From the NCBI GenBank assembly GCA_038064775.1, contig JBBTSG010000006.1, positions 32,168-81,478 of the forward strand: 49,311 nt of DNA, given 5' to 3'. Numbering within the stretch: position 1 is the stretch's first letter; each line of letters begins with the position of its first letter. Under the pieces are notes generated by a model that ran no database searches, had not been told where the DNA came from, and saw only the letters and a list, made by a program, of their open reading frames with translations. This stretch comes from Patescibacteria group bacterium (lineage in GTDB: Bacteria; Patescibacteriota; Minisyncoccia; UBA6257; GWB1-50-10). Positions 1-32,113 of this stretch are shown in pieces. Made by a program: the position numbers and the translations under genes.

Positions 1-39
1 CTCGATAAACAACTCACAAGAGTACCCATCCTAAAGACC

Positions 40-55
40 ATATATATATATATAT
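40..55 (+). repeat. (AT)8 dinucleotide microsatellite
   Basis: acc-ATATATATATATATAT-cgc read directly from the sequence. Confidence 0.95.
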
Positions 56-127
56 CGCGCCCTTCGTTGGCGAGTTTCAAACCTATTTCATAAAGGAGCT
101 AAATTAGATTGGCAGATTCATTGGTGG

Positions 128-916
128 ATGCTAGATGGATTAGAGTTTGTTAAGAAAAATAAATTAAGAGATTTTATTTTTACCGAAGAAGGAGGATTTG
201 TGAGGATGCCGAACGGATTAGAGTTTTGGTTTGACCCTACTAAGTATAACGGCATGATCCACCCTCTTATGTTTAGCGATATGAGATGCGATATAGAGGA
301 AGTAACTACGCTTCAAACTATATTAAAAAATATATCGAACTCGATTATTATTGATGCTGGAGCTGGTTATGGAGATTATGCTTGTGGAATGGCTTTTAAT
401 ACTAATGCGATTGTTTATGCTTTCGAACCAGAACTTGCACTCTATTCCTCTTTGGTTAAAACTGCGCAACACAATAAACTTGATAAAAGAGTTCATTGTT
501 ATAACTTAGCTTTAGCAGATAAGGAAGGATTTTTGGACGTAAAAATTCCTAATCAAAAAATTATTTTTCCTACGACTACCATAGATAATCTTATAGAAAA
601 AGAGAATGTTGAACGAGTTGATTTTATCAAAGCGGACATTGAGGGAGCTGAACTCAATATGTTAAAGGGTTCGGTAGGGTGTCTTAAAAAATTTAAACCT
701 CACTTATTGCTTGAAATCGTTGAAGAACACTCAGAACGAATGGGAAACTCGGTTGATGAATTATTAAAATTTCTACACGAATTTGGTTATGAAAATTGTG
801 CTTACGTGACTGAAAAAGAACAAATATTTATTAATCCGATTGAGGATCTAAAGAAAGTTTTGTCAAAAGAATATAATTTTTTCTTCTGGCATAAAGATAA
901 AAAATTCAATCTTTAA
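128..916 (+). CDS. FkbM family SAM-dependent methyltransferase (likely glycan O-methyltransferase); reading frame stays open upstream to nt 35 and may be frameshifted at an (AT)8 tract
   Basis: IIDAGAGYGDY SAM motif, VYAFEP, LALAD, TTIDNL and VDFIKADIEGAELNMLKG are FkbM hallmarks. Confidence 0.85.
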   Translation: MLDGLEFVKKNKLRDFIFTEEGGFVRMPNGLEFWFDPTKYNGMIHPLMFSDMRCDIEEVTTLQTILKNISNSIIIDAGAGYGDYACGMAFNTNAIVYAFEPELALYSSLVKTAQHNKLDKRVHCYNLALADKEGFLDVKIPNQKIIFPTTTIDNLIEKENVERVDFIKADIEGAELNMLKGSVGCLKKFKPHLLLEIVEEHSERMGNSVDELLKFLHEFGYENCAYVTEKEQIFINPIEDLKKVLSKEYNFFFWHKDKKFNL

Positions 917-1005
917 TTAACAAAGAACCCTTTAAAATAGTAAGGGCATCGTTTATATCCCCCACCTTCAAAAATAAAAAACCTAATGCTGTTTTCAAGG
1001 AAATC

Positions 1006-1515
1006 CTATTTATATGAAACGTGATTAGACATTGATTTACCAAGGAGTAATGGTTTAATAATTTGCCACAGTTTTCTATGTTCCGGAATAATATCTTGAG
1101 GCATCTTCGCAAACCACACCCCGTGCTTTGCGGTTTTTAAAGTGGCGCATGAAAAAAATATTGAAACGCATTTAAAACGTCGACTATCGTATACGATTAC
1201 TCTACGAGCCGAGAGTGATTTGCTATTTTTAATTTTCAATCCCGCCTCCACTCGCGCAGTTCTTTGGCAAGTCGTTAAAAAAGTTTCTCTGGGACTCATA
1301 TAACTTCCGGGAAAGTGCCAGCCCTTAAAATATTTGTCATTCCGATATATTAAAAGCACTTTTCTATTTTGAATTAAAGCAAGCTCCGTTGCCACTGGGA
1401 CATTTTTTCTCATAAGCGATACAAAAACATTTTCTGGAATATTAGGAATTGACGGAAGTCTTTTCAATAATTGTGCCAATGTTTTAATTTCCGCTTTGGT
1501 TAAATGTTTTTGCAT
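1006..1515 (-). CDS. Nudix-fold hydrolase with degenerate Nudix box (GDP-mannose mannosyl hydrolase-like)
   Basis: VLLIYRNDKYFKGWHFPGSYMSPRETFLTTCQRTARVEAGL resembles the Gmm/WcaH region; paralog of 9145-9642. Confidence 0.7.
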   Translation of the reverse strand: MQKHLTKAEIKTLAQLLKRLPSIPNIPENVFVSLMRKNVPVATELALIQNRKVLLIYRNDKYFKGWHFPGSYMSPRETFLTTCQRTARVEAGLKIKNSKSLSARRVIVYDSRRFKCVSIFFSCATLKTAKHGVWFAKMPQDIIPEHRKLWQIIKPLLLGKSMSNHVSYK

Positions 1516-2486: not shown

Positions 2487-3218
2487 CTATATAGCTGTTG
2501 GACCGACGTACTCTACATCTTCAGAATCAAGACGACGATAAGACTTCTCGTTTTTACACTCCTCCTCAACGTGAGCTATTATACCCGGTAATCGGCCCAA
2601 AATAAAAAATGCTTTGCCAAGTCGCCAATTAAATCCAAGCTCGGAAATGATTGCAGCCACTGCCCCATCAACGTTCAATGGTAGCACCTTACCTGTCTGG
2701 CGAAACAGTTCCGACTCAATTTCCCGCGCTCGATTTAAATACTTCATGGAAAGCTTCAATTCTTGCGATTTTTTAAAAAGCGCCGTGGTTCTATGATCCT
2801 CTGTTTTATAAACCTTATGGCCATATCCGGGTAACCGTTCTTTTCTCTGAATTGAGCGCTCTACTATTACCTGTGGCGAATCAGCCGACTGGAAATAAAA
2901 AGCAGCTTTTTCAATCGCGCCACCATGCATGTCTCCTATGGCGAGAATGCCCGCGGCGATGGCCGCATTCTGAGAATTGCCGGTAGAAACTACACTTCTC
3001 GCAACAAATGCTGACGGCACCTCTATTCCATGCTCTACCATGGAAATTAAAATCGCCTCCAGCATCTTAGCCTGGTTTTTAGAGGCCTGTTTTCCCTGTA
3101 AAATAAAGAATATGGTCTCCGCCAAATTTGCATCGTCCACCAATTTAGCCAAACGAACACCTCTTATATAAAACTCCCCGTCTTTATATGAGCTGATTGC
3201 AGTTTTCCATTTCATCAC
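2487..3218 (-). CDS. Citryl-CoA lyase (citrate synthase-like domain of ATP-citrate lyase)
   Basis: EHG..PSAFVAR, GDMHGGA, LPGYGHKVYK.ED.R, PLNVDGAVAA, GRLPGIIAH; about 240 aa stand-alone citrate-synthase fold. Confidence 0.88.
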   Translation of the reverse strand: MMKWKTAISSYKDGEFYIRGVRLAKLVDDANLAETIFFILQGKQASKNQAKMLEAILISMVEHGIEVPSAFVARSVVSTGNSQNAAIAAGILAIGDMHGGAIEKAAFYFQSADSPQVIVERSIQRKERLPGYGHKVYKTEDHRTTALFKKSQELKLSMKYLNRAREIESELFRQTGKVLPLNVDGAVAAIISELGFNWRLGKAFFILGRLPGIIAHVEEECKNEKSYRRLDSEDVEYVGPTAI

Positions 3219-4123
3219 CTTATTTTCCCACGAAGTTTTTCTTTAATCAACGGTGGCACGTCTTCTAAGGTGTTTACCACATAAACTCCGGCGCGTTTTA
3301 AAGAACTTACCTTTGAGGTGTAACTACCCCTTCCTTTCATGACTATCGCGCCAGCATGCCCTAAAACCGTGCCACTCGGAAGCTTTTCTGTGAATTTCCC
3401 GGCAATCAAAGCTATTATTGGTTTTTTGAATTTTGACTTTTTTATAAATCCGGCCAGTTCTTCCTCATAAATTCCGCCCACTTCGCCGAAAATTACTATG
3501 GCGCGCGTATCGTTATCCGTACCAAAGAGTTTAACTATGTCTATAAAATCAGAACCAGAAATTTGATCACCGCCAATACCAATAACAGTGCTTTGACCCA
3601 AACCTGCGTGATTTAATGTAACTGCGATTTCTGCAACCATACCACCACTTTTAGAAATAACTCCAATTCTGCCTGGTTGAAAAATATTTTTTGGATTACT
3701 ACCGCCGATACTCCCTACTTTCCCATAACCCGGAGAAATAATACCGACAGATGATGGACCGATAATAGTTGCTTTGTTTTTTCTAGCCCAAGCAAGAATT
3801 ATCGCGGTATCCATAACCGGCACATGTTCGGTTAAAATATTTATTAGCGGGATTTTATGATTAATAGCTTCAAGCGTGGCATCTTTTACCGCAAGCGCTG
3901 GCACAACAATAAGAGACGTGTTTATGGTTGGATGTAGACGTAAGACATCTTCTACCGTGTCATAAATAGGCACTCCATAAATTATTTGACCACCCTTACC
4001 GGGCGTAACGCCAGCTAGAACCTTAGTACCATAATTCCGCATCCCCTCCATGGCACGCAACCCCTCCTTGCCAGTAATTCCCTGAATAACTACTCTTGTT
4101 TTTTTATTAACGAGAATGCTCAT
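3215..4123 (-). CDS. ATP-citrate lyase/citryl-CoA synthetase CoA-binding subunit (SucD-like); start reassigned to MSILVNKK
   Basis: VIQGITGKEG, GVTPGKGG, IIGPSSVG, SKSGGM, IGIGGD, GEVGG, phospho-His motif LGHAGA. Confidence 0.88.
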   Translation of the reverse strand: MSILVNKKTRVVIQGITGKEGLRAMEGMRNYGTKVLAGVTPGKGGQIIYGVPIYDTVEDVLRLHPTINTSLIVVPALAVKDATLEAINHKIPLINILTEHVPVMDTAIILAWARKNKATIIGPSSVGIISPGYGKVGSIGGSNPKNIFQPGRIGVISKSGGMVAEIAVTLNHAGLGQSTVIGIGGDQISGSDFIDIVKLFGTDNDTRAIVIFGEVGGIYEEELAGFIKKSKFKKPIIALIAGKFTEKLPSGTVLGHAGAIVMKGRGSYTSKVSSLKRAGVYVVNTLEDVPPLIKEKLRGKIR

Positions 4124-5198
4124 AGTTTTTCTTTTTTTTTGACAAATCAACAACTAATTTAGCGGTTTCGGACATTGGCGTCCTTGAATCAAAGATATGA
4201 AAATCATAACCCTCTTTTTCTGCCACGGCCCTTAGCATCTCCTCGGCCTCCTTTTGCCGTGGTCCATCACGCCTTATAACAAAGGGATAGTTCGGCTTTG
4301 GTTTAACGCTTCTTAAGCCATCTAAAAACCCGCGCATTGTTTCATATATATCCGTAAAGTTTGCCGTACCACCTATAACCCAACAGCCCTTGAGTCCTTT
4401 TTGCGCAAGAACACGCTTCGTTAACTCCTCAACTATTTTAGCCGGTGGATTACCGGAATATTCCACATAGTTTGCTGGACGACCGCCATAAAAAAATAAA
4501 GCGTCAATATTTAAAAGAGAGGCACCCCCACCTGATGCAAGAATTGCGATATCTCCATTTAGATTTAGAAAGCTTCGTTCGTTCGGATTTATTTTCTCAT
4601 TATCCAAAATTACTTTTGCGTCACCCGCGATGAATTGACCATTTGAAGTTTTGAGTATCGGGTTAATTTCGGCAAGTAATGCATCCTCATCTAAAAATAA
4701 TTGCCATAAATTCTTAAGTAATAGGGAAAGTGGCGGGATATCCGACGAAACAAAACCGCTTTTCTGTAACGCCTCGCGAAAAAAAAATGGTTGGACGCCA
4801 GAAACCAGATCGATGGGAAATGTTTTTGCTTTTGAAATGCCAGATCCGCCTTTTGTGGAAAGCATTAGAATTGGACTTCGCAACATTAAATCATAACTGA
4901 ACGACGCATAATATTCATTACTTGCCGTGATTTTTTCTTCGACTAGAACGCTGATAATTTTTTTACCGGAAAGACCTCTTCTTAAAAGAACTTTTAATTG
5001 TTTTTTTACTTCCGATTTGGTTTTAGCGAATAATATTCCTCCGGCCTTCTTCCTCTCTCCAAAAAGAACTTGCGCTTTTACAGCATAAGGACCAGCGAAC
5101 CGAATTTTGGTCGCCGGACTACTCGCTATAACTCGACGAGGCGTAGGAATGCTGTATTTTTCAAACAATTCCTTCCCTTGAAACTCATATAATTTCAT
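4107..5198 (-). CDS. ATP-citrate lyase ATP-grasp/citrate-binding subunit (AclB/SucC-like)
   Basis: MKLYEFQGKELF, KAQV, EINP, DAK, SGGGAS, PANYVEYSGNP; GGTANFT and IRRDGP match the ACL citrate-binding motifs (GGIANFT/RRGGP) rather than SucC (GGIVRCD). Confidence 0.85.
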   Translation of the reverse strand: MKLYEFQGKELFEKYSIPTPRRVIASSPATKIRFAGPYAVKAQVLFGERKKAGGILFAKTKSEVKKQLKVLLRRGLSGKKIISVLVEEKITASNEYYASFSYDLMLRSPILMLSTKGGSGISKAKTFPIDLVSGVQPFFFREALQKSGFVSSDIPPLSLLLKNLWQLFLDEDALLAEINPILKTSNGQFIAGDAKVILDNEKINPNERSFLNLNGDIAILASGGGASLLNIDALFFYGGRPANYVEYSGNPPAKIVEELTKRVLAQKGLKGCWVIGGTANFTDIYETMRGFLDGLRSVKPKPNYPFVIRRDGPRQKEAEEMLRAVAEKEGYDFHIFDSRTPMSETAKLVVDLSKKKKNYEHSR

Positions 5199-7003
5199 GG
5201 ATTTGTCTTAGCTTCTTTCTCCAAGTCGGTCACCATTTGTTGTTTTAGTTCCGCGGGATCCAAAAACGGATACATGTCTTCGTATGGTTTGGGCACAAAT
5301 CTGCCATCGGGTAATTTATCCGACATAGTTCTTGGCGCCAATATTTGCCACTCTGGCGTCATTACGTCACAAATTACTGGCCCATCATAACTTAAAACTT
5401 CAGCTATTTTTTCATCAATCCCGTCCACTGAATCGATTCTAACGCCTTTAATTCCGTAAGCCTCCGCTATCTTAAGAGAATCCGGACACCAAAGACCAGT
5501 AGCCGGACTCTCGCCTATTAAATGTTTGTTCATAAAATTAGCTTGACTTAGTCGCATCAATAAATATCCATTGTTATTAAAAATAAAAATCTTAAGTGGT
5601 AAATTATTGTGTTTAACGGTGGCGAGCTCCTGCAAATTCATTTGCAAACTACCATCTCCAGTGATAACAATAGTATTTTTCCTATCATTAGCCACACAAG
5701 CCCCAATTCCGGCTGCCCAGTAACCCATAGTGGAAAATCCACCAGTCGTTAAAAATTTTTGACCTTTCTTTATTTTCCATGTTTGACACGCGACATGAAA
5801 ACAGGAACCGGTATCAACTAAAATCCAATCGTCTTTTGTCGCGGCCGCGGAAAGTTTGTCAGTAAAATAATATGAGTTTACCGGTTTTTCATTCTTGTAA
5901 GAAGGTTGAACAACTGGATACTTAATTCTCCATGCCTTACATACTCTTACCCACCCTCCCCAATCCGGCAATTTTTTATCGGTAATTTCTTCAAGTAACG
6001 TTTGAAGGAATTTTTTTGCCGTGCTCTTTATTTTAAGATCAATTTCAACCCCTGGCTTGTCCAGTTCTTTTTGGTCAACGTCCACAACAATTTTTTTTGC
6101 GTTTCTTCCGAAATCTTTGGGGTTATGTCCAACTAATGACGTGGCTAATCTGCAACCAACAACTACTATTAAATCTGAATTTTGAATCGCAAAATTTGCA
6201 GCTCTTTCCCCATACGTACCCGGCCTACCAACATACAATTTATGCTCGCTATCAATTAAATCTATTGCTAAACGCGCGGTTAAAATTGGAATTTTTAGCA
6301 AATTAATAAGATTCTCGAATTCTCCCTCCGCGCTACCCAATTTTATCCCTTGCCCAACCAAGAGTATTGGTCTTTTTGCACTTAGTAACATTTGGACTAG
6401 TTCTGCGATTTGACCTTTGTCAGACGCGAACTCTTCTTCCGTTTCTTGTTCATTAAAAATCTTTGCCGGTTTTTCCGGAACTTCAGCTCTTTGTATATCC
6501 AACGGCACATCAAGCCAAACCGGACCAGGCCTGCCGTTCATGGCAAGATAATAAGCCTTCTCCAAATAATATAATAAGTTAGCGGGGTTATCGACGGTAA
6601 CAAAAAATTTAACTACGTCTTTTACTAACGGTTTTATGTTTATACCCTGGACTCCAACTTGCCGAATTTTATTTTTTTCCTGATAATCGACAAACGCTAA
6701 ATTCGTCTGTCCAGAAATAATAATCATTGGCGAAGAATCTACCCAGCCGCCAACCACGCCGTTAATAACGTTCACCGCGCCGGGCCCCGCGGTTACCATA
6801 GCAATCGCTGGCTTTTTTTTTAGCCGTCCGTAGGCTTCAGCTGCCATTCCGGCTGCCTGTTCGTGATGAGAACAAATAACCTTAATTTTCTTACTCCTAT
6901 AAATCGCGTCATTTAGAAACATGGATTGCCCACCAGCAACCATAAACACCGCCTCAACTTCTTTTTCTTCAAAAAATTTTAAAATATAATCAGCAACAAT
7001 CAT
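5195..7003 (-). CDS. ThDP-dependent acetolactate-synthase-like enzyme, YerE/ErwE type (branched-sugar acyl transferase)
   Basis: HHEQAAGMAAE, VTAGPG, RPGPVWLDVPLDIQ, TGDGSLQMNLQEL..NNNGY; glycan-locus context. Confidence 0.85.
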   Translation of the reverse strand: MIVADYILKFFEEKEVEAVFMVAGGQSMFLNDAIYRSKKIKVICSHHEQAAGMAAEAYGRLKKKPAIAMVTAGPGAVNVINGVVGGWVDSSPMIIISGQTNLAFVDYQEKNKIRQVGVQGINIKPLVKDVVKFFVTVDNPANLLYYLEKAYYLAMNGRPGPVWLDVPLDIQRAEVPEKPAKIFNEQETEEEFASDKGQIAELVQMLLSAKRPILLVGQGIKLGSAEGEFENLINLLKIPILTARLAIDLIDSEHKLYVGRPGTYGERAANFAIQNSDLIVVVGCRLATSLVGHNPKDFGRNAKKIVVDVDQKELDKPGVEIDLKIKSTAKKFLQTLLEEITDKKLPDWGGWVRVCKAWRIKYPVVQPSYKNEKPVNSYYFTDKLSAAATKDDWILVDTGSCFHVACQTWKIKKGQKFLTTGGFSTMGYWAAGIGACVANDRKNTIVITGDGSLQMNLQELATVKHNNLPLKIFIFNNNGYLLMRLSQANFMNKHLIGESPATGLWCPDSLKIAEAYGIKGVRIDSVDGIDEKIAEVLSYDGPVICDVMTPEWQILAPRTMSDKLPDGRFVPKPYEDMYPFLDPAELKQQMVTDLEKEAKTNP

Positions 7004-7008
7004 CGTTT

Positions 7009-8013
7009 TTATTGGTGTTTTTTTGACAAATTCACGGCTACATCTACAATAACATCTTCTTGACCAGCAACAACTTTTCGTTTTCCTAACTCCATAAAAA
7101 TATCTCTAGCATCAACTCCAAACTCTTCGGCCGCTTTCTTTACATGCGGAGTAAAACCAGAAAACACCCCCGCTAAACCGCTTACAATACTGATCGGGTC
7201 AATCCCTTGGAGGGTTTTCATTATCGGCTTTATTATCTCCTCGCCAGCATCCAAAAGCTTATATAGCTCTACGCCCGTATCTATCCCAGCTTTCTGCATC
7301 AAAGCCATCAAAGCTTCGAGTTGGCAATTACCCGCACCCGCCCCAAATCCCCTCACCGTGCCATCAATAATACTTGCCCCGGACTCTAAAGCGATAAAAG
7401 AATTGGCCACGGCCATACTTAAATTATTATGGGCGTGAAAGCCAACTAGAATTTTTAAATTATCCGCCAAGTGTTTAACCGTTTCCCTAACCATAAGAGT
7501 GGTGGATGAACCAGCCGAATCCATAAGCAACACGCCCTTTACGCCATAGCTTTGCATTTTTTTTGCCTCTTCTAATAATCTTTCTTTCGAAGCCATATGA
7601 TACATCATTAGAACGCCAAAAGCCTCTTTTCTTTTACTAACCACATACTCAATATGCTGCTGGGTAATATCAGCTTCCGTACAATGCGTTCCTACACAAA
7701 CCAAATCTACTCCAGCATCAAGCGCTGGAGCCAAATCATCTTTAATAGTGCCAAATCCAGGAATCAAAAAGGTTCCTAGTTTGGTTTTTTTTAACGCTTC
7801 GCGCGCCGTAGAAATTATTTCCAAATCAGAATAAGCCGAAAGTCCAACCTGAAGAGTTGAAGCACCCAAGCCATTACCGTGTCCAACAATAACAGCGTAG
7901 AGACCAGACCCGTCAACTTTTTCACAATAGCTTTTGATTGTGAGGGGGTTAATTTGGTGCCTTACTGCGTGCGACCCATCCCTTAAAGTGGAATCAAAAA
8001 AAATAGGTTTCAT
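7009..8013 (-). CDS. dmpG: 4-hydroxy-2-oxovalerate aldolase
   Basis: DSTLRDGSHAVRHQ, VGHGNGLGAS, THCTEAD, GFHAHNNL, LGKRKVVAGQED. Confidence 0.93.
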   Translation of the reverse strand: MKPIFFDSTLRDGSHAVRHQINPLTIKSYCEKVDGSGLYAVIVGHGNGLGASTLQVGLSAYSDLEIISTAREALKKTKLGTFLIPGFGTIKDDLAPALDAGVDLVCVGTHCTEADITQQHIEYVVSKRKEAFGVLMMYHMASKERLLEEAKKMQSYGVKGVLLMDSAGSSTTLMVRETVKHLADNLKILVGFHAHNNLSMAVANSFIALESGASIIDGTVRGFGAGAGNCQLEALMALMQKAGIDTGVELYKLLDAGEEIIKPIMKTLQGIDPISIVSGLAGVFSGFTPHVKKAAEEFGVDARDIFMELGKRKVVAGQEDVIVDVAVNLSKKHQ

Positions 8014-8891
8014 TTGTTTTTATATTTTTTTCTGGCGTATTCTTCTGCAACTTGTACGGCTGCGGAGGTTATTATGTCTAAGTTTCCGGAATACTCTGGT
8101 AAAAAATCGCCTAGGCCGGTCACTTCGGTGGTAATGGTAAGACGACCATTTTCGTAAGTCGGCCCCAAAATAAGCTTGTATCCAGACGCATATTTTTTGA
8201 TTTGCGCAATAATTTCTTTTATTTTTTCCTCTATTTCCTTCAATTTTGGCTTTTCAATTTCAGCGTAAATCGTATTGCGCATCCGAACCGGCGGTTCTGC
8301 CGGATTCAAAATAATAACGGCTTTTGCTTTAGGCACCCCGGAGTAATGCTCAATCGCGTCTTTGGTTGTCTGAGTATATTCATCAATGTTTGCTCGCGTA
8401 CCAGGACCAGCTGATTTAGAAGAAATTGTCGCAACGATTTCAATATATTTTATCTCCGGGTGTATTTCCATTAGAACCTTAGCTATTGGCGCCGTGGCTT
8501 GACCGCCACAAGTCACCATATTAATGTTTTCCGCGCCGATACTTTCTTCCAAGTCAATAACCGGAACGCACATTCTGCCAAACCTTGATGGAGTTAAGTC
8601 AATTACAAATTTGCCAAGTTTTTTTAAAATTGGGGCGTTAACCATATGCGCTTTCGCAGAAGTCGTGTCAAAAACAACTTCACAAATATCTGGCTCGTCT
8701 AAAATTACCTGAATTGAATCCGCAGAAGTCCTGATGCCCATCTCTTTTGCTTTTTGAATTCCTTTGGACTTAGCGTCGCGCCCGGCAAAAATACTACATT
8801 CCAAAAGATCAGACCGTCGTATCTTAAATAGCAAGTCCATCCCAATATTGCCAGTACCGATAATGCCTATTTTAACTTTTTTATTTTCCAT
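8010..8891 (-). CDS. dmpF: Acetaldehyde dehydrogenase (acylating)
   Basis: IIGTGNIG, DLTP, NMVTCGGQAT (catalytic Cys), SKSAGPGTRANIDEY, GNLDIITSAA. Confidence 0.93.
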   Translation of the reverse strand: MENKKVKIGIIGTGNIGMDLLFKIRRSDLLECSIFAGRDAKSKGIQKAKEMGIRTSADSIQVILDEPDICEVVFDTTSAKAHMVNAPILKKLGKFVIDLTPSRFGRMCVPVIDLEESIGAENINMVTCGGQATAPIAKVLMEIHPEIKYIEIVATISSKSAGPGTRANIDEYTQTTKDAIEHYSGVPKAKAVIILNPAEPPVRMRNTIYAEIEKPKLKEIEEKIKEIIAQIKKYASGYKLILGPTYENGRLTITTEVTGLGDFLPEYSGNLDIITSAAVQVAEEYARKKYKNK

Positions 8892-14346: not shown

Positions 14347-15426
14347 TTAGAACAAATCCGCCCAAATCACCATTGCCCGCCTAATTTTATTCCAATACTC
14401 ACCTGGATGAGGTAGTTTACTCGAGATCTCTTTATATAAATCCTTAACATTTGTCCCACTCAGATTCATTTCGTAAACTATCTGCCATAAATTCTCGTTT
14501 ATTTCTAATCCTGATCTCTCTTTTTCCAAATTAACGTATGGATCGCTCGCCCGATCATGCCAAACCACCGGATGACCAGAAGCGGCGCGGTAGTCCAAAA
14601 CATCAATAATCTTCTTCGCAAATACGCCAGCCCAAATATCATCAAATCTGTCATAACCCCACAGCTCGCCCGCTGCGTTTTTGCCCATTAACAGAAAATA
14701 CATTGCGGGCGTAAGTTCGCGCTTCCAAGCTACGTTCATTCCACACATTGGAAAAAAACTCCACCGCGGAATCATACGGTCGTGAAAATAGTGGTCGATA
14801 TGGGGAATTTCCTTCATATTTATTTGGGTCTCGGCATCCACGTCTGGCACGTTTGCCCAAAGACCATGAGAAAGCATTACTCGTTCGGAACCGAGAGGGT
14901 GCTCGAAATTTTTATGTGGGAACCCGCGAGGATTCAAATTGAGCGTCGAAGATACCCATGCCGGCTCCCGAAATTTCCTTTCAAAGAGATTGTGACGGTG
15001 AGTCTCCACGAGATCGTAAATATGATGCGCCTTGAGGTGAGCGCTATAATTCAGGGAAGGATAACAATCGTCGTCCAGAGAAATTATCATATCCGCACCA
15101 AGTTGATAGGCCTTCCAAAAACCGTAGGACTTAATAGAGCTCGAACGCCGCGGGATTATCCAATTGTCTAAACCGAGATCATTTTCAATATCTGCCCAAC
15201 TCAGATGAAGAACATTAAAATCAAGTTTTTTGTCGTCAATTCCAAAGGCCTTAACGGGATTATCCTCAACCACTACCAAAACCACCTCGTTTTTTTTAAA
15301 AATATCCTTCCATTCGTCCAAAAATCTCAAAATTGATTCTTGTCGTATAGTTGGAACAACAACGAATATTCGTGTCGTCGCTTCTTTTTGCTCTTTATGA
15401 GATTTTGTTTTTTGAACGTGAAGCAT
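14347..15426 (-). CDS. Reversibly glycosylated polypeptide (RGP)/UDP-arabinopyranose mutase family (GT75) homolog
   Basis: VVPTIR, SLDDDCYP (DxD), RGFP, SHGLWANVPDVDAETQI, FPMCGMNVAW, PAMYFLLMG, RFDDIWAG, WHDRASDPYVNLEKE occur in the same order as in plant RGP/UAM. Confidence 0.88.
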   Translation of the reverse strand: MLHVQKTKSHKEQKEATTRIFVVVPTIRQESILRFLDEWKDIFKKNEVVLVVVEDNPVKAFGIDDKKLDFNVLHLSWADIENDLGLDNWIIPRRSSSIKSYGFWKAYQLGADMIISLDDDCYPSLNYSAHLKAHHIYDLVETHRHNLFERKFREPAWVSSTLNLNPRGFPHKNFEHPLGSERVMLSHGLWANVPDVDAETQINMKEIPHIDHYFHDRMIPRWSFFPMCGMNVAWKRELTPAMYFLLMGKNAAGELWGYDRFDDIWAGVFAKKIIDVLDYRAASGHPVVWHDRASDPYVNLEKERSGLEINENLWQIVYEMNLSGTNVKDLYKEISSKLPHPGEYWNKIRRAMVIWADLF

Positions 15427-28654: not shown

Positions 28655-31600
28655 TTAGCTACTCGACAAGGTCGTCACCTCAACCGACGGCATTATTCCA
28701 GGAATAACACCATCAATATAGAGACCAGTGGGTACGCTTGCAGAGTTTGTCGGGTTAGACGGGTAACCATAGAGATCACTACCTTTTACGTAGTAAAGAA
28801 GGTTGCCGATCGTCTGAATAGAGAACTTGAAGGTGTTGCCGTTATCCGCCGCAACGTTCGTCTTGATAATCAAGTATCTTGAAGAACCTCCAAGAATCGT
28901 TCGATTTGCTTCAGATGCAGAAATTGTGTATCCGAAAGGAACGCTTGAAGAACCAAGGGAGGTCGCCCATGTAGAAGTGCTGTAGGTGATATCAGCGCTT
29001 GAATTAGACATCTGGGAAGCATACAGCGTGTAAGCGCTAGATGTTGCCGTTGTCGTACCAGCGCCACTATTGTAGAAGGTCATACCCGTAGTGGAAGTTG
29101 AAAGATAAATCGGGGTTGCGCCGTTATTCGTAATCTTAAATGTCGCAACTGTCTGACCAGATGTTAAACCAATTATCTTTGTTGCCACCGTTGGCGAAAC
29201 TCCTGTAACAACAACACTCTGCGGTACAACGAATGAATAGCCGGTAGAAACAACCGTGCTAGCACCGGTACTGATTCCAGGTTGACCTGTCACCGTACCA
29301 GTCGTAAGTCCACTCACTGAACCCTTTACGGTCACATGAGTGCTTGAAGCAATAACGAACGCGAAGCTATTACCAAGGTCATCTATCGTGCCGACCCCAA
29401 CATCAGCTTTCACGTAAATCGTCGTGCCACTAACTGGCACCGGCGCAGTCAAAATATTATCTGACGTACCACCGACGGATGGGAAAGTAACAACGCATTC
29501 ACCGGCAATACAAGTATCAAACTGTCCTTTTGTTAATCCTGCTGGTACAAGATCGCCAGAAAGCGTGATATTCCTTAGAGTCGTCGTTGTTAAACCAGTT
29601 GAACCGGAACTTGTCGCTGTAAGCTTCAAGGAAGTAATTTTTTGCGTTTCATTAGCTGAACTCAATCTAACCGCAAACCACGTTCCTTGAGTTGCGCCAA
29701 CCGAAACCGTTTGGTTATTACTTGGTGTAGCGCCTGCGCCAGTTACGAGGTTCATATTAAGCGAACCGGAAGTAACTATAGTTTGCGCCTGACCACTACC
29801 GGCGAAACTAATATCCGTACCGTTCGTCAAACTATTACCTGTTGTCACGCCAACGGCGGTTATAGCCGATGTTGACGAAGCAACATTGAAAGTGTGTGTG
29901 ACGTTAGCGGATGTGGATGAAGCAACATTAGCCACTAAGTAAAGAGTGATTGGTGTTGCGCGGTTGACCACAATCGGCGATGAGAAATTGAAGTTTGTGG
30001 TAGCGCCGTTTGTCGCTGTTGAAGCGGTTGTTGAAAGAACTGTACCGCCACTCACTGGGTTACCTTTGTACATCACAAGACTAGTAATTCCGGTGTAATT
30101 GGAGTCACTGCTTGAATCTGATACTTTAACGGTCGTCACATTCACGTCTTCACCGCCCGCCGAAGAATTCAAAGTAATAGTGGCGAAAACATAATCGTTC
30201 GTGCCCACCACTACTGATTGGCCGGCAAGTGGCAATGATGCAAGTGTTGTCACCGTAAGAGCGGCTGCTTTAACTGAAAGCGCGAGGCCATCAGTCGCCG
30301 CCACAGTCGGATCAACGAGGTCATTTGTTACTAAACGTTTGGCTTGAATAATATCAAAGGACTTCACTTGATAACTATCAACCGCTGTCGCGGTCGAAGG
30401 AATCGAAGTTTCAACCGTTATAAAGTTATCCACGCCTTGAGTGGCAACCGGATAACTCGACAAGGTAAAGGTAGCTGCCGTAATCGGCGAAACATTGGAA
30501 CCGCCAGTGCTGTAGACAATCGCGCCGTTAAACTTCACATAAACCGTGCCGGTTAATGTTTTAGCGGCTGCAGTCGAAGTCGCAATGTAGAAACTAACCT
30601 GCCGCACTTCCATGTTCTCGCCACTCGGCCTAAAGTTGTATTTCGCTAAGAGAACATTGTTCGCGGAAGGAGTAACCGCCGCGCTTGGCGAATCAATTGT
30701 TCGCGTCAAAGTCGCCGTGCCGGTACCAATCGTCTGGATGTTGAAACCATTACCGATCGGGAACGCGGAGTCATTCGTCGCCGCCGCGCCCGGAATAACG
30801 GAGACACCGGTCGTCACGCCCATCAGATTAATATCGTAGTTGTTGTAAACCACAAGGTTAATTGTTTTTGTCGTGCCGCCGATAAGCTTCGCTTTTACGG
30901 TGAAATTTTTCGTTAACCCCTTATCAATGAAGTAAGCGGGTGTAATCGTAAAGTTTACATACTGGCCCATTGGCTGAGCAGTCGCCAAAATATTACCGGA
31001 TTGATCAAGTAACTGAACATCCGCGTAATCGCCTGCTCCCGCGTTGCCATAGTTATATAAGGTCAAAGCGGAAAAGTTTACTCCTTCATTAGAAGAGGTT
31101 TCTCGAACCTGGAATTTTGTAATTTCCTGTTGGCTCACTGGATCAACACTTAAAGAGCTTGAACCGGTTGAGGTCAAAACATCTAAAGTAGTGGAAGCTA
31201 ACGCGCTCGCGCCACTTACGATGTTCATTCCATTACCAACAATCGGGTAACTACCACCAATTGAAGTTGTGTCAGCCATAATTGCCGACGCCGAATTAAT
31301 GTTAAACGCAACCGTGCCGGTAATAGAACCTGTCACAAGGTTGAATCGCACTGTAAACGAAGTTGACTGTCCTGCCGCAACCATAATCGGGCTGCTTGGG
31401 AAAGTAATACCGATTGTGTTATCAGCGTTAATAGAAGTTATAACATTGCCGTGCCGCACACCCATGGCGTCAATAACGTCAACACCATTAAGAGATGTGT
31501 TCGCGACAAAGCCACTCTTCTGCAAAGTAACGCCTGTCACATTCACTGCTTTAGAACCAGCCGTCAAGTTAACCTTTAAAGCTGGATTGAAAGCTGTTCC

Positions 31601-32113
31601 TGAACCGATTGTTCTTGCCGCTGGCGTATCAACCGCCAAAGAAGCAACTAAATCAGTACCGGAAGGCACAATTACGACTGGCGGAATACCACCAGTACCT
31701 CCTGTTGCTGTACCCACAAAAGCCGCGCGGGTTTTCGGACCGAAGTAACCGACGGAAGGAGTAACTCCCTTCGCCGCCTGCCAAGCCGCCAAAGCCGCCT
31801 TAGTCAAAGAACCAAAGAAGGCTGTCGGGGCCGCGACCTTCAAATAACCGCCGCTAATCAAGGTTTGCTGCAAAGCCGTCACATCTGCTCCTTTGCTACC
31901 CACGGTGAGGTCGCGAGTAAACGTGTAAGAAGATGCTGGGGTGCCGCTGTTACCTTGCAAAGCTGCTATTTGCTGTTGAAGAGCTTGAATTTGCGCGAGC
32001 AAAGCGTTGATATCAACGGATTGAGCGCTTACTGGAACTACTGAACCAGCCAACCAAACCATCGTTGTGATGGAAAGACCGACTGATAAAATTTTACTAG
32101 TTAATTTACTCAT
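28655..32113 (-). CDS. Large secreted S/T/G-rich surface (S-layer-like) protein with N-terminal peptidoglycan-binding domain
   Basis: Signal peptide, LLAQIQALQQQIAALQG coil, FTRDLTVGSKGADVTALQ...GYFGPKT PG_binding_1 motif, beta-rich repeats, strong terminator. Confidence 0.85.
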   Translation of the reverse strand: MSKLTSKILSVGLSITTMVWLAGSVVPVSAQSVDINALLAQIQALQQQIAALQGNSGTPASSYTFTRDLTVGSKGADVTALQQTLISGGYLKVAAPTAFFGSLTKAALAAWQAAKGVTPSVGYFGPKTRAAFVGTATGGTGGIPPVVIVPSGTDLVASLAVDTPAARTIGSGTAFNPALKVNLTAGSKAVNVTGVTLQKSGFVANTSLNGVDVIDAMGVRHGNVITSINADNTIGITFPSSPIMVAAGQSTSFTVRFNLVTGSITGTVAFNINSASAIMADTTSIGGSYPIVGNGMNIVSGASALASTTLDVLTSTGSSSLSVDPVSQQEITKFQVRETSSNEGVNFSALTLYNYGNAGAGDYADVQLLDQSGNILATAQPMGQYVNFTITPAYFIDKGLTKNFTVKAKLIGGTTKTINLVVYNNYDINLMGVTTGVSVIPGAAATNDSAFPIGNGFNIQTIGTGTATLTRTIDSPSAAVTPSANNVLLAKYNFRPSGENMEVRQVSFYIATSTAAAKTLTGTVYVKFNGAIVYSTGGSNVSPITAATFTLSSYPVATQGVDNFITVETSIPSTATAVDSYQVKSFDIIQAKRLVTNDLVDPTVAATDGLALSVKAAALTVTTLASLPLAGQSVVVGTNDYVFATITLNSSAGGEDVNVTTVKVSDSSSDSNYTGITSLVMYKGNPVSGGTVLSTTASTATNGATTNFNFSSPIVVNRATPITLYLVANVASSTSANVTHTFNVASSTSAITAVGVTTGNSLTNGTDISFAGSGQAQTIVTSGSLNMNLVTGAGATPSNNQTVSVGATQGTWFAVRLSSANETQKITSLKLTATSSGSTGLTTTTLRNITLSGDLVPAGLTKGQFDTCIAGECVVTFPSVGGTSDNILTAPVPVSGTTIYVKADVGVGTIDDLGNSFAFVIASSTHVTVKGSVSGLTTGTVTGQPGISTGASTVVSTGYSFVVPQSVVVTGVSPTVATKIIGLTSGQTVATFKITNNGATPIYLSTSTTGMTFYNSGAGTTTATSSAYTLYASQMSNSSADITYSTSTWATSLGSSSVPFGYTISASEANRTILGGSSRYLIIKTNVAADNGNTFKFSIQTIGNLLYYVKGSDLYGYPSNPTNSASVPTGLYIDGVIPGIMPSVEVTTLSSS

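Follow-up and report, generated by a model that had tools for sequence, protein, structure and literature searches.

An AT-repeat tract of variable length in the 5' coding region of an FkbM-family methyltransferase gene, a candidate contingency locus in a groundwater CPR bacterium

A perfect run of eight AT dinucleotides lies at the left edge of a 49,311-nt stretch of Patescibacteria DNA (hereafter the window, meaning the whole stretch that was analysed), at a point where two open reading frames overlap and one of them continues into an FkbM-family methyltransferase ORF. Does this run switch the enzyme on and off, as the sequence-only reading of the locus had proposed, or does it mark a gene that has been lost? 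The tract itself, the logic of its frames, the continuous N-terminus of homologues and a polymorphism in tract length all support the former, and we put the probability that the locus is a slipped-strand contingency locus acting by frameshift at about 0.6.

The AT tract and its reading frames

The exact bounds of the (AT)8 run are window positions 40–55, where the sequence-only reading had placed it, and translation bore out what had been said of the two frames. Frame 1 is readable from base 1 (LDKQLTRVPILKTIYIYISRPSLASFKPIS*) and is terminated by a TAA at 91–93, and frame 2, closed by a TAA at 32–34, is uninterrupted from position 35 through ATG 128 and along a 262-aa ORF. The features of the region, in window coordinates, are the following.

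1–39, plus strand: frame-1 codons 18–30 (LDKQLTRVPILKT) of the full-length methyltransferase gene, homologous to residues 28–39 of the homologue P0002 and with 91% nucleotide identity to the locus L002
40–55, plus strand: (AT)8, the frame-setting simple sequence repeat (SSR); (AT)14 in the contigs L001 and L007, (AT)8 in L010, and the presumed ancestral Y-x-Y codons TAC TTC TAT in L002
56–127, plus strand: frame-2 codons RALRWRVSNLFHKGAKLDWQIHWW, the rest of the N-terminal extension, aligned to P0002, P0004, L003 and L005
91–93, plus strand: TAA closing the 47-aa OFF-state peptide in frame 1, with n mod 3 = 2
128–916, plus strand: 262-aa ORF annotated by gene callers, the C-terminal 81% of the full protein, with the FkbM/class I SAM-methyltransferase domain
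917–1023, strand not assigned: 3' flank of the inserted FkbM cassette, with a synteny break against the relative cluster L011

None of 100 dinucleotide-preserving shuffles contained an (AT)8 run, a first-order Markov model gives about 1e-5 such tracts expected per window, and the longest other dinucleotide run within the 49-kb window has 4 units. No similar repeat was present in the 6.8 kb beyond the left edge of the window or in any related locus that was retrieved. Simulation over n = 4–19 showed that repeat numbers of 6, 9, 12, 15 and 18 join the frames into a protein of 320–328 aa, while every n not divisible by 3 produces a peptide of 45–59 aa (47 aa at n = 8 and 51 aa at n = 14). This agrees with the earlier claim that (AT)9 or (AT)6 would unite the frames and (AT)8 would not. 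Since frame 2 contains no start codon between the TAA at 32–34 and ATG 128, positions 56–127 are translated only when the tract is in phase. An AGGAG is present beside the frame-1 TAA, at 93–97, and the same bases encode K-G-A in the intact homologue P0002. The Rfam gathering scan of the whole window gave 0 matches, and therefore no known RNA element lies at the tract site.

The start of frame 1, which the sequence-only reading had expected to the left of the window, was found in the Logan contig L001 (run ERR3858118). This contig also encodes the 262-aa protein and adds 6.8 kb leftward, with window base 1 corresponding to L001 6792. Frame 1 begins at ATG L001 6741, 51 nt left of the window and the first start codon following a stop, and the left edge of the window falls within the 5' end of a methyltransferase gene of ~322 codons. 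The best promoter-like site of the region, TTGACA-17-TAGTAT (L001 6686–6714), ends 27 nt before this ATG. Frame 1 might instead have been the tail of a separate upstream gene, a caveat already raised in the sequence-only reading. This was rejected because all other genes leftward of the window are on the opposite strand; moreover, the 63-aa ORF adjoining on the left has no family match and overlaps the remnant of an old NUDIX 3' end. The 47- or 51-aa stub shares homology with the N-terminal part of intact FkbM proteins, and frame 1 is thus not a complete gene of its own.

The protein, its homologues and its gene cluster

The 262-aa ORF matches the FkbM domain PF05050 with 65.6 bits (cut-off 22.7) and TIGR01444 with 81 bits (cut-off 37.7), and the invariant D-x-G-A-x-x-G columns are present as IDAGAGYGD. 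The AlphaFold model of P0002 (mean pLDDT 81, pTM 0.79) has a Rossmann core with pLDDT above 90, and among PDB entries it is closest to the FkbM structure 2py6 (E 4.7e-10). Both the sequence and the predicted fold place the protein in the FkbM family. The PDB fold search accounts for the catalytic core and not for the N-terminal helices, of which the model contains four (pLDDT 60–73). The tract site falls within the predicted helix 36–51, and the 262-aa form would begin inside the predicted helix 57–76.

Homologues were searched with the hypothetical in-frame fusion of both frames as the query. The sequence-only reading had suggested checking whether homologues carry the longer N-terminus or begin at MLDG. 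P0002 (329 aa, 76% identity, covering 98% of the fusion) and P0004 (336 aa, 35% identity, covering 95%) carry the long N-terminus in a single ORF. Since P0002 is one continuous ORF across both frames, NFLRREFPRWLDKQFTRVPILK-YFY-RAFRWRISSLFHKGAKLDWQIHWWMLDG, which unites the frame-1 and frame-2 peptides of the window and reads K-YFY-R at the tract site, homologues do not begin at MLDG. The corresponding DNA is AAG TAC TTC TAT CGT in P0002 versus AAG ACC (AT)8 CGC in the window. Gene calling gave short proteins for two further homologous loci, L003 and L005 (P0005 and P0003, respectively), yet the DNA of these loci encodes the extension in frame. Because all four homologues (P0002, P0004, L003 and L005) have [Y/H]-x-[Y/H] at this site, the tract most likely arose when a Tyr-x-Tyr motif expanded in this lineage; TAT ATA TAT (Tyr-Ile-Tyr) is already a short TA run and may have been its origin.

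Most family members have 100–160 residues before the Pfam domain, compared with 135 in the fused form and 75 in the 262-aa form. Between the tract and ATG 128, the 24 codons differ from L002 by 7 synonymous and 3 non-synonymous changes, giving an omega of 0.065 in frame 2 only; shifted-frame controls for the same segment gave values of 0.7–1.1 and contained stops. Nucleotide identity to L002 is 91% and 86% in the two parts of the extension and 74% in the rest of the gene. The 60-residue extension has a net charge of +10 and is 18% aromatic, and the rest of the protein has a net charge of -10. This composition is consistent with a membrane-interface anchor that would bring the enzyme to a lipid-linked glycan, and the extension is presumably needed for function. 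The family and the gene neighbourhood point to a surface glycan as the acceptor, which would be O-methylated.

Several features of the extension in homologues deserve separate mention. Its dS against L002 is low (0.24 and 0.82, versus 2.1 for 128–916), possibly owing to recombination, a second constraint at the DNA or RNA level, or small-sample noise. In L005 (3943–4014) a single ATG lies upstream, and at an A4 run it is put one base out of phase with the conserved extension; with A5, MIHEAKILNFLRN... would be restored, and the first in-frame start is TTG 4011. In L003 (1–172) the extension is in frame, with no ATG, GTG or TTG ahead of TTG 172. Either non-canonical starts are used at these irregular 5' ends or 5' disruption is recurrent in the subfamily. 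Without a clean extension start in L003 and L005, the extension may be dispensable or often disrupted.

The gene lies within a glycan cluster of more than 25 kb that encodes GT2 and GT4 glycosyltransferases, an RmlC-like isomerase, DegT aminotransferases, sugar dehydratases and epimerases, together with a sugar C-methyltransferase, a protein of the RGP family and a Wzy_C protein. The related cluster L011 (83–88% nucleotide identity) has no methyltransferase, and its NUDIX gene is followed by GT2 only 9 nt later. For this reason, the methyltransferase and its promoter are interpreted as a 1,205-nt cassette inserted in antisense orientation into the NUDIX 3' end (window -170..1023, equivalent to L001 6622–7826 and L006 4493–5697). 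The cassette has a GC content of 32%, versus 40% for the window. The antisense NUDIX gene (1006–1515) takes its final 5 codons and its stop from the cassette, and the old NUDIX tail persists beside GT2, inside the 63-aa ORF. Neither a target-site duplication nor a mobile-element gene was seen at the cassette. Judged by the comparison with L011, the methyltransferase is an accessory gene and not a core one.

Other genes of the window add to the picture of this genome. Its ClpB is 75–77% identical to proteins named Candidatus Jorgensenbacteria, Paceibacterota or Patescibacteria. Positions 2487–8891 (minus strand) hold an ATP-citrate-lyase-like trio (ATP-grasp_2 plus Citrate_bind; CoA_binding plus Ligase_CoA; the C-terminal half of citrate synthase), and the same stretch encodes a TPP enzyme, a DmpG-like aldolase (HMGL-like plus DmpG_comm) and a DmpF-like acetaldehyde dehydrogenase. 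This unusual enzyme set, inside the glycan cluster of a CPR genome, is conserved in L011 and may contribute a branched or acylated substituent to a sugar. The reversibly glycosylated polypeptide (RGP) family homologue of the cluster (PF03214, which we take to be the plant UDP-arabinopyranose mutase family) occupies 14347–15426 (minus strand), and an RGP-family gene also lies directly 3' of the intact FkbM homologue, at L002 1331–1903. RGP-family genes near FkbM may be a clue to the methylated sugar. Positions 28655–32113 (minus strand) encode a protein of 1,152 aa, probably a large component of the surface or cell wall, in which a peptidoglycan-binding domain at the N-terminus is the one domain that could be recognised; GC content peaks here within the window, reaching 48.5% in the 30–32 kb bin.

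Tract length among near-identical copies

The sequence-only reading had called for a check on variation in repeat length, and such variation was found among four assemblies of otherwise near-identical DNA.

Window copy: (AT)8, the reference
L001 (Logan, run ERR3858118): (AT)14, differing from the window by 2 SNPs and one 12-nt indel (the tract) in 10.9 kb
L007 (Logan, run ERR3858116): (AT)14, with 5,476 nt identical to the window up to the tract, where the contig ends
L010 (ENA ERZ1292635, contig Hain_H43_02um_R3): (AT)8, with both flanks spanned in one contig

The four copies represent two alleles (n = 8, 8, 14 and 14), and all have n mod 3 = 2. Because only an n divisible by 3 yields the full protein of 320–328 aa, all four assembled copies are out of frame (OFF), and an ON allele was found in 0 of 4. 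On the evidence of these copies, the tract is hypermutable relative to its background.

Further searches were made for other alleles. Exact look-up of the ON proteins (n = 6, 9, 12, 15, 18 and 21) and of the OFF peptides in a collection of 15 billion proteins returned none, and the homologue search with the fused form gave no near-identical full-length match. In the GTDB representative genomes and the JGI metagenome contigs, patterns of the tract-flanking DNA with a variable gap retrieved nothing, and locus searches seeded with the fused ON protein retrieved no relative. Look-ups through neighbouring genes (NUDIX and epimerase) recovered only the same two Logan contigs.

The contig name of L010 places the lineage in Hainich well H43. 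Run accessions ERR3858113–15 belong to the AquaDiva groundwater project, and ERR3858116 and ERR3858118, being adjacent to them, are most likely AquaDiva runs as well.

The positions at which contigs break may hint at heterogeneity within samples. L007 begins (5460–5490) with the 31-mer CC(AT)14C, and Logan assemblies are presumably built with k = 31. A unitig would have to start here if the node ACC(AT)14 were followed by C in copies with n = 14 and by A in copies with n of at least 15. The first 55 bases of the window consist of 39 nt followed by the whole (AT)8 and end at the last base of the tract, and 55 is what we take to be the default final k of metaSPAdes. If the window edge is a contig end, its first 55-mer would be the vertex at which the paths for n = 8 and for n of at least 9 part. 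Both break points would fit the coexistence of longer alleles (at least 15 and at least 9 units, respectively) in the reads. Version 3.13 of metaSPAdes was used to assemble the Hainich samples (PMC8672522).

The proposed switch and its alternatives

According to the proposed mechanism, an ancestral Tyr-x-Tyr motif would have grown into a perfect (AT)n tract 90 bases into the coding sequence, where slipped-strand mispairing at replication would add or remove AT units. A repeat number divisible by 3 would keep the basic, helical extension of ~60 residues in frame with the catalytic domain, and with any other number translation would stop after 45–59 residues. The tract would thereby turn an accessory enzyme ON or OFF in a stochastic, heritable and in principle reversible way, and this enzyme presumably methylates the surface glycan made by the surrounding cluster. 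ON cells should then occur, and switching should be frequent and reversible.

Three properties expected of a phase-variable locus were found here. The tract is a perfect SSR, far above background, inside a coding sequence; a change in unit number toggles between a full-length and a truncated product in simulation, with the frame validated by P0002 and P0004; and the repeat number is polymorphic between near-identical genomes (8 versus 14). As for the coexistence of ON and OFF states, the four assemblies carry OFF consensus alleles only, while the contig ends would fit longer coexisting alleles, and we therefore describe the locus as a candidate that may work like a contingency locus.

The only serious rival, which we consider unlikely, is a recent pseudogene: expansion of the AT run would have knocked out the gene, and the tract would now drift neutrally with no functional ON state. 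It has to be taken seriously because every copy is OFF and no simulated ON protein occurs in the 15-billion collection. An ON allele is likewise missing from the other accessible collections; moreover, the gene is dispensable, as its absence from the relative L011 implies, and damaged or unclear 5' ends are also found in the L003 and L005 genes related to it. Nevertheless, no stop and no other indel interrupts either coding segment or the 262-codon remainder, and the tract is perfectly pure at 8 as well as at 14 units. Its location, in the 5' part of the coding sequence for an enzyme that modifies a surface glycan, is the one that is classical for contingency loci. The contig breaks suggest alleles at least one unit longer, and alleles with n = 9 or 15 would be ON. 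The low omega against L002 (0.065–0.08) also argues against gene loss, although it is compatible with a very recent one.

It is rather improbable that the functional product is the short protein from ATG 128 or ATG 206, with the upstream part serving as a leader or short uORF and the tract at most tuning translation. Gene callers picked ATG 128 in all assemblies, the entire Pfam domain lies downstream of it, and a GGAGG (191–195) stands 10 nt ahead of ATG 206; furthermore, the homologue calls P0003 and P0005 begin at positions equivalent to ATG 128 / ATG 206. However, ATG 128 has no usable Shine-Dalgarno sequence, since the GGTGG directly abuts the ATG, and in P0002 the same bases specify the internal residues H-W-W-M, and those of the GGAGG specify G-G. 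Both L003 and L005 DNA carries the extension in frame, 5' of the starts that were called, and the extension is better conserved than the remainder of the gene (86–91% versus 74% nucleotide identity). The methionine at the ATG 206 position is not kept in P0004 or P0005.

We regard as highly improbable a recoding event by which OFF alleles leak full-length enzyme, through RNA polymerase slipping by one AT unit on a hybrid made up of A and U alone, or through a -2 nt ribosomal slip on AUAUAU, where the tRNAs could pair again without mismatch. Such a locus would be leaky and not binary. Both alleles belong to the n mod 3 = 2 class, which would be rescued by a -2 ribosomal slip or by insertion of one unit into the transcript, but the chance of two alleles sharing a phase is about 1/3. 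In E. coli, two-nucleotide transcription deletions are enriched in dinucleotide repeats (PMC5574713), which favours transcriptional slippage at such a tract; these are deletions, however, and would not rescue n mod 3 = 2. Neither a stimulatory structure nor a known slippery heptamer is present.

An assembly or sequencing artefact hiding an intact gene with an in-frame repeat number is scarcely credible. Low-complexity AT runs are error-prone and L010 has only 3x coverage, but n = 8 was recovered independently in the window and in L010 (ENA Hainich; metaSPAdes-made assemblies, PMC8672522) and n = 14 in Logan contigs from two runs. The 16-nt tract is shorter than every k used, and by graph reasoning a 28-nt tract cannot collapse to 16 nt in a k = 21/33/55 or k = 31 graph, as a collapse at k = 21 would give 11 units.

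A further candidate was a promoter-spacer switch. In Haemophilus influenzae hifA/hifB, (TA)n lies between the -35 and -10 boxes of divergent promoters and alters their spacing and hence transcription. The present tract shares this repeat unit and is also flanked by divergently transcribed genes, with the GT2 start 264 nt away. Unlike the hif tract, it begins 90 nt inside the coding sequence counted from ATG L001 6741 and lies ~115 nt downstream of the predicted -10 element, and it would therefore act by frameshift and not by promoter spacing; the spacer switch was rejected, since the tract is downstream of both the start codon and the best promoter-like site and homologues translate across this position.

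The contingency-locus reading has close counterparts among known systems. Intragenic SSR contingency loci in surface-glycan modification are known from the capsule and LOS genes of Campylobacter jejuni (PMC8437040, PMC6321876). In both cases a hypermutable repeat inside the coding sequence of an accessory polysaccharide-decorating enzyme sets the frame by its number, and the gene belongs to a variable glycan cluster. However, Campylobacter uses poly-G tracts instead of an AT dinucleotide tract, and its ON and OFF states and their phenotypes, including phage resistance, have been shown experimentally, whereas here only OFF alleles are seen, known from sequence. Campylobacter is also a host-adapted pathogen, in contrast to the uncultured groundwater CPR bacterium studied here. 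The type III mod gene of Mycoplasma mycoides subsp. capri, which is OFF with (AG)12 and ON with (AG)10 (PMC3498834), is similar in having a dinucleotide repeat in the coding region of a methyltransferase gene, in a small-genome organism, and in that the sequenced allele is out of frame, (AG)12 ending mod just past the tract. The mod enzyme, however, is a DNA methyltransferase of a restriction-modification system, whereas FkbM-family enzymes act in small-molecule or sugar methylation, and an active in-frame (AG)10 clone was isolated in M. mycoides, whereas no in-frame allele was found here.

In the literature searched, no paper pairs "phase-variable" with "candidate phyla radiation", none of the listed papers on SSR phase variation mentions Patescibacteria, and nothing relevant was found on phase variation in CPR/Patescibacteria or groundwater. 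The mechanism is thus of a known kind, in a new host group. For the fuller claim, that this is a working contingency locus in which (AT)n switches surface-glycan methylation, as bet-hedging of an ultra-small episymbiont against phages or for host attachment, we see the odds as even.

Gene callers in every assembly annotated the 262-aa protein and overlooked the frameshifted 5' end and the repeat, and similar switches in metagenome-assembled genomes have therefore probably been systematically overlooked. The Hainich read sets (ENA PRJEB36505) are public, so that the contingency reading is open to test on existing data. Repeat-driven phase variation is regarded as a hallmark of pathogens and commensals that are adapted to a host and exposed to immune or phage pressure. 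If the reading is true, this strategy would extend to free-living or episymbiotic ultra-small bacteria, and surface-glycan methylation would be a trait under fluctuating selection in them, through phage receptors or host-cell recognition.
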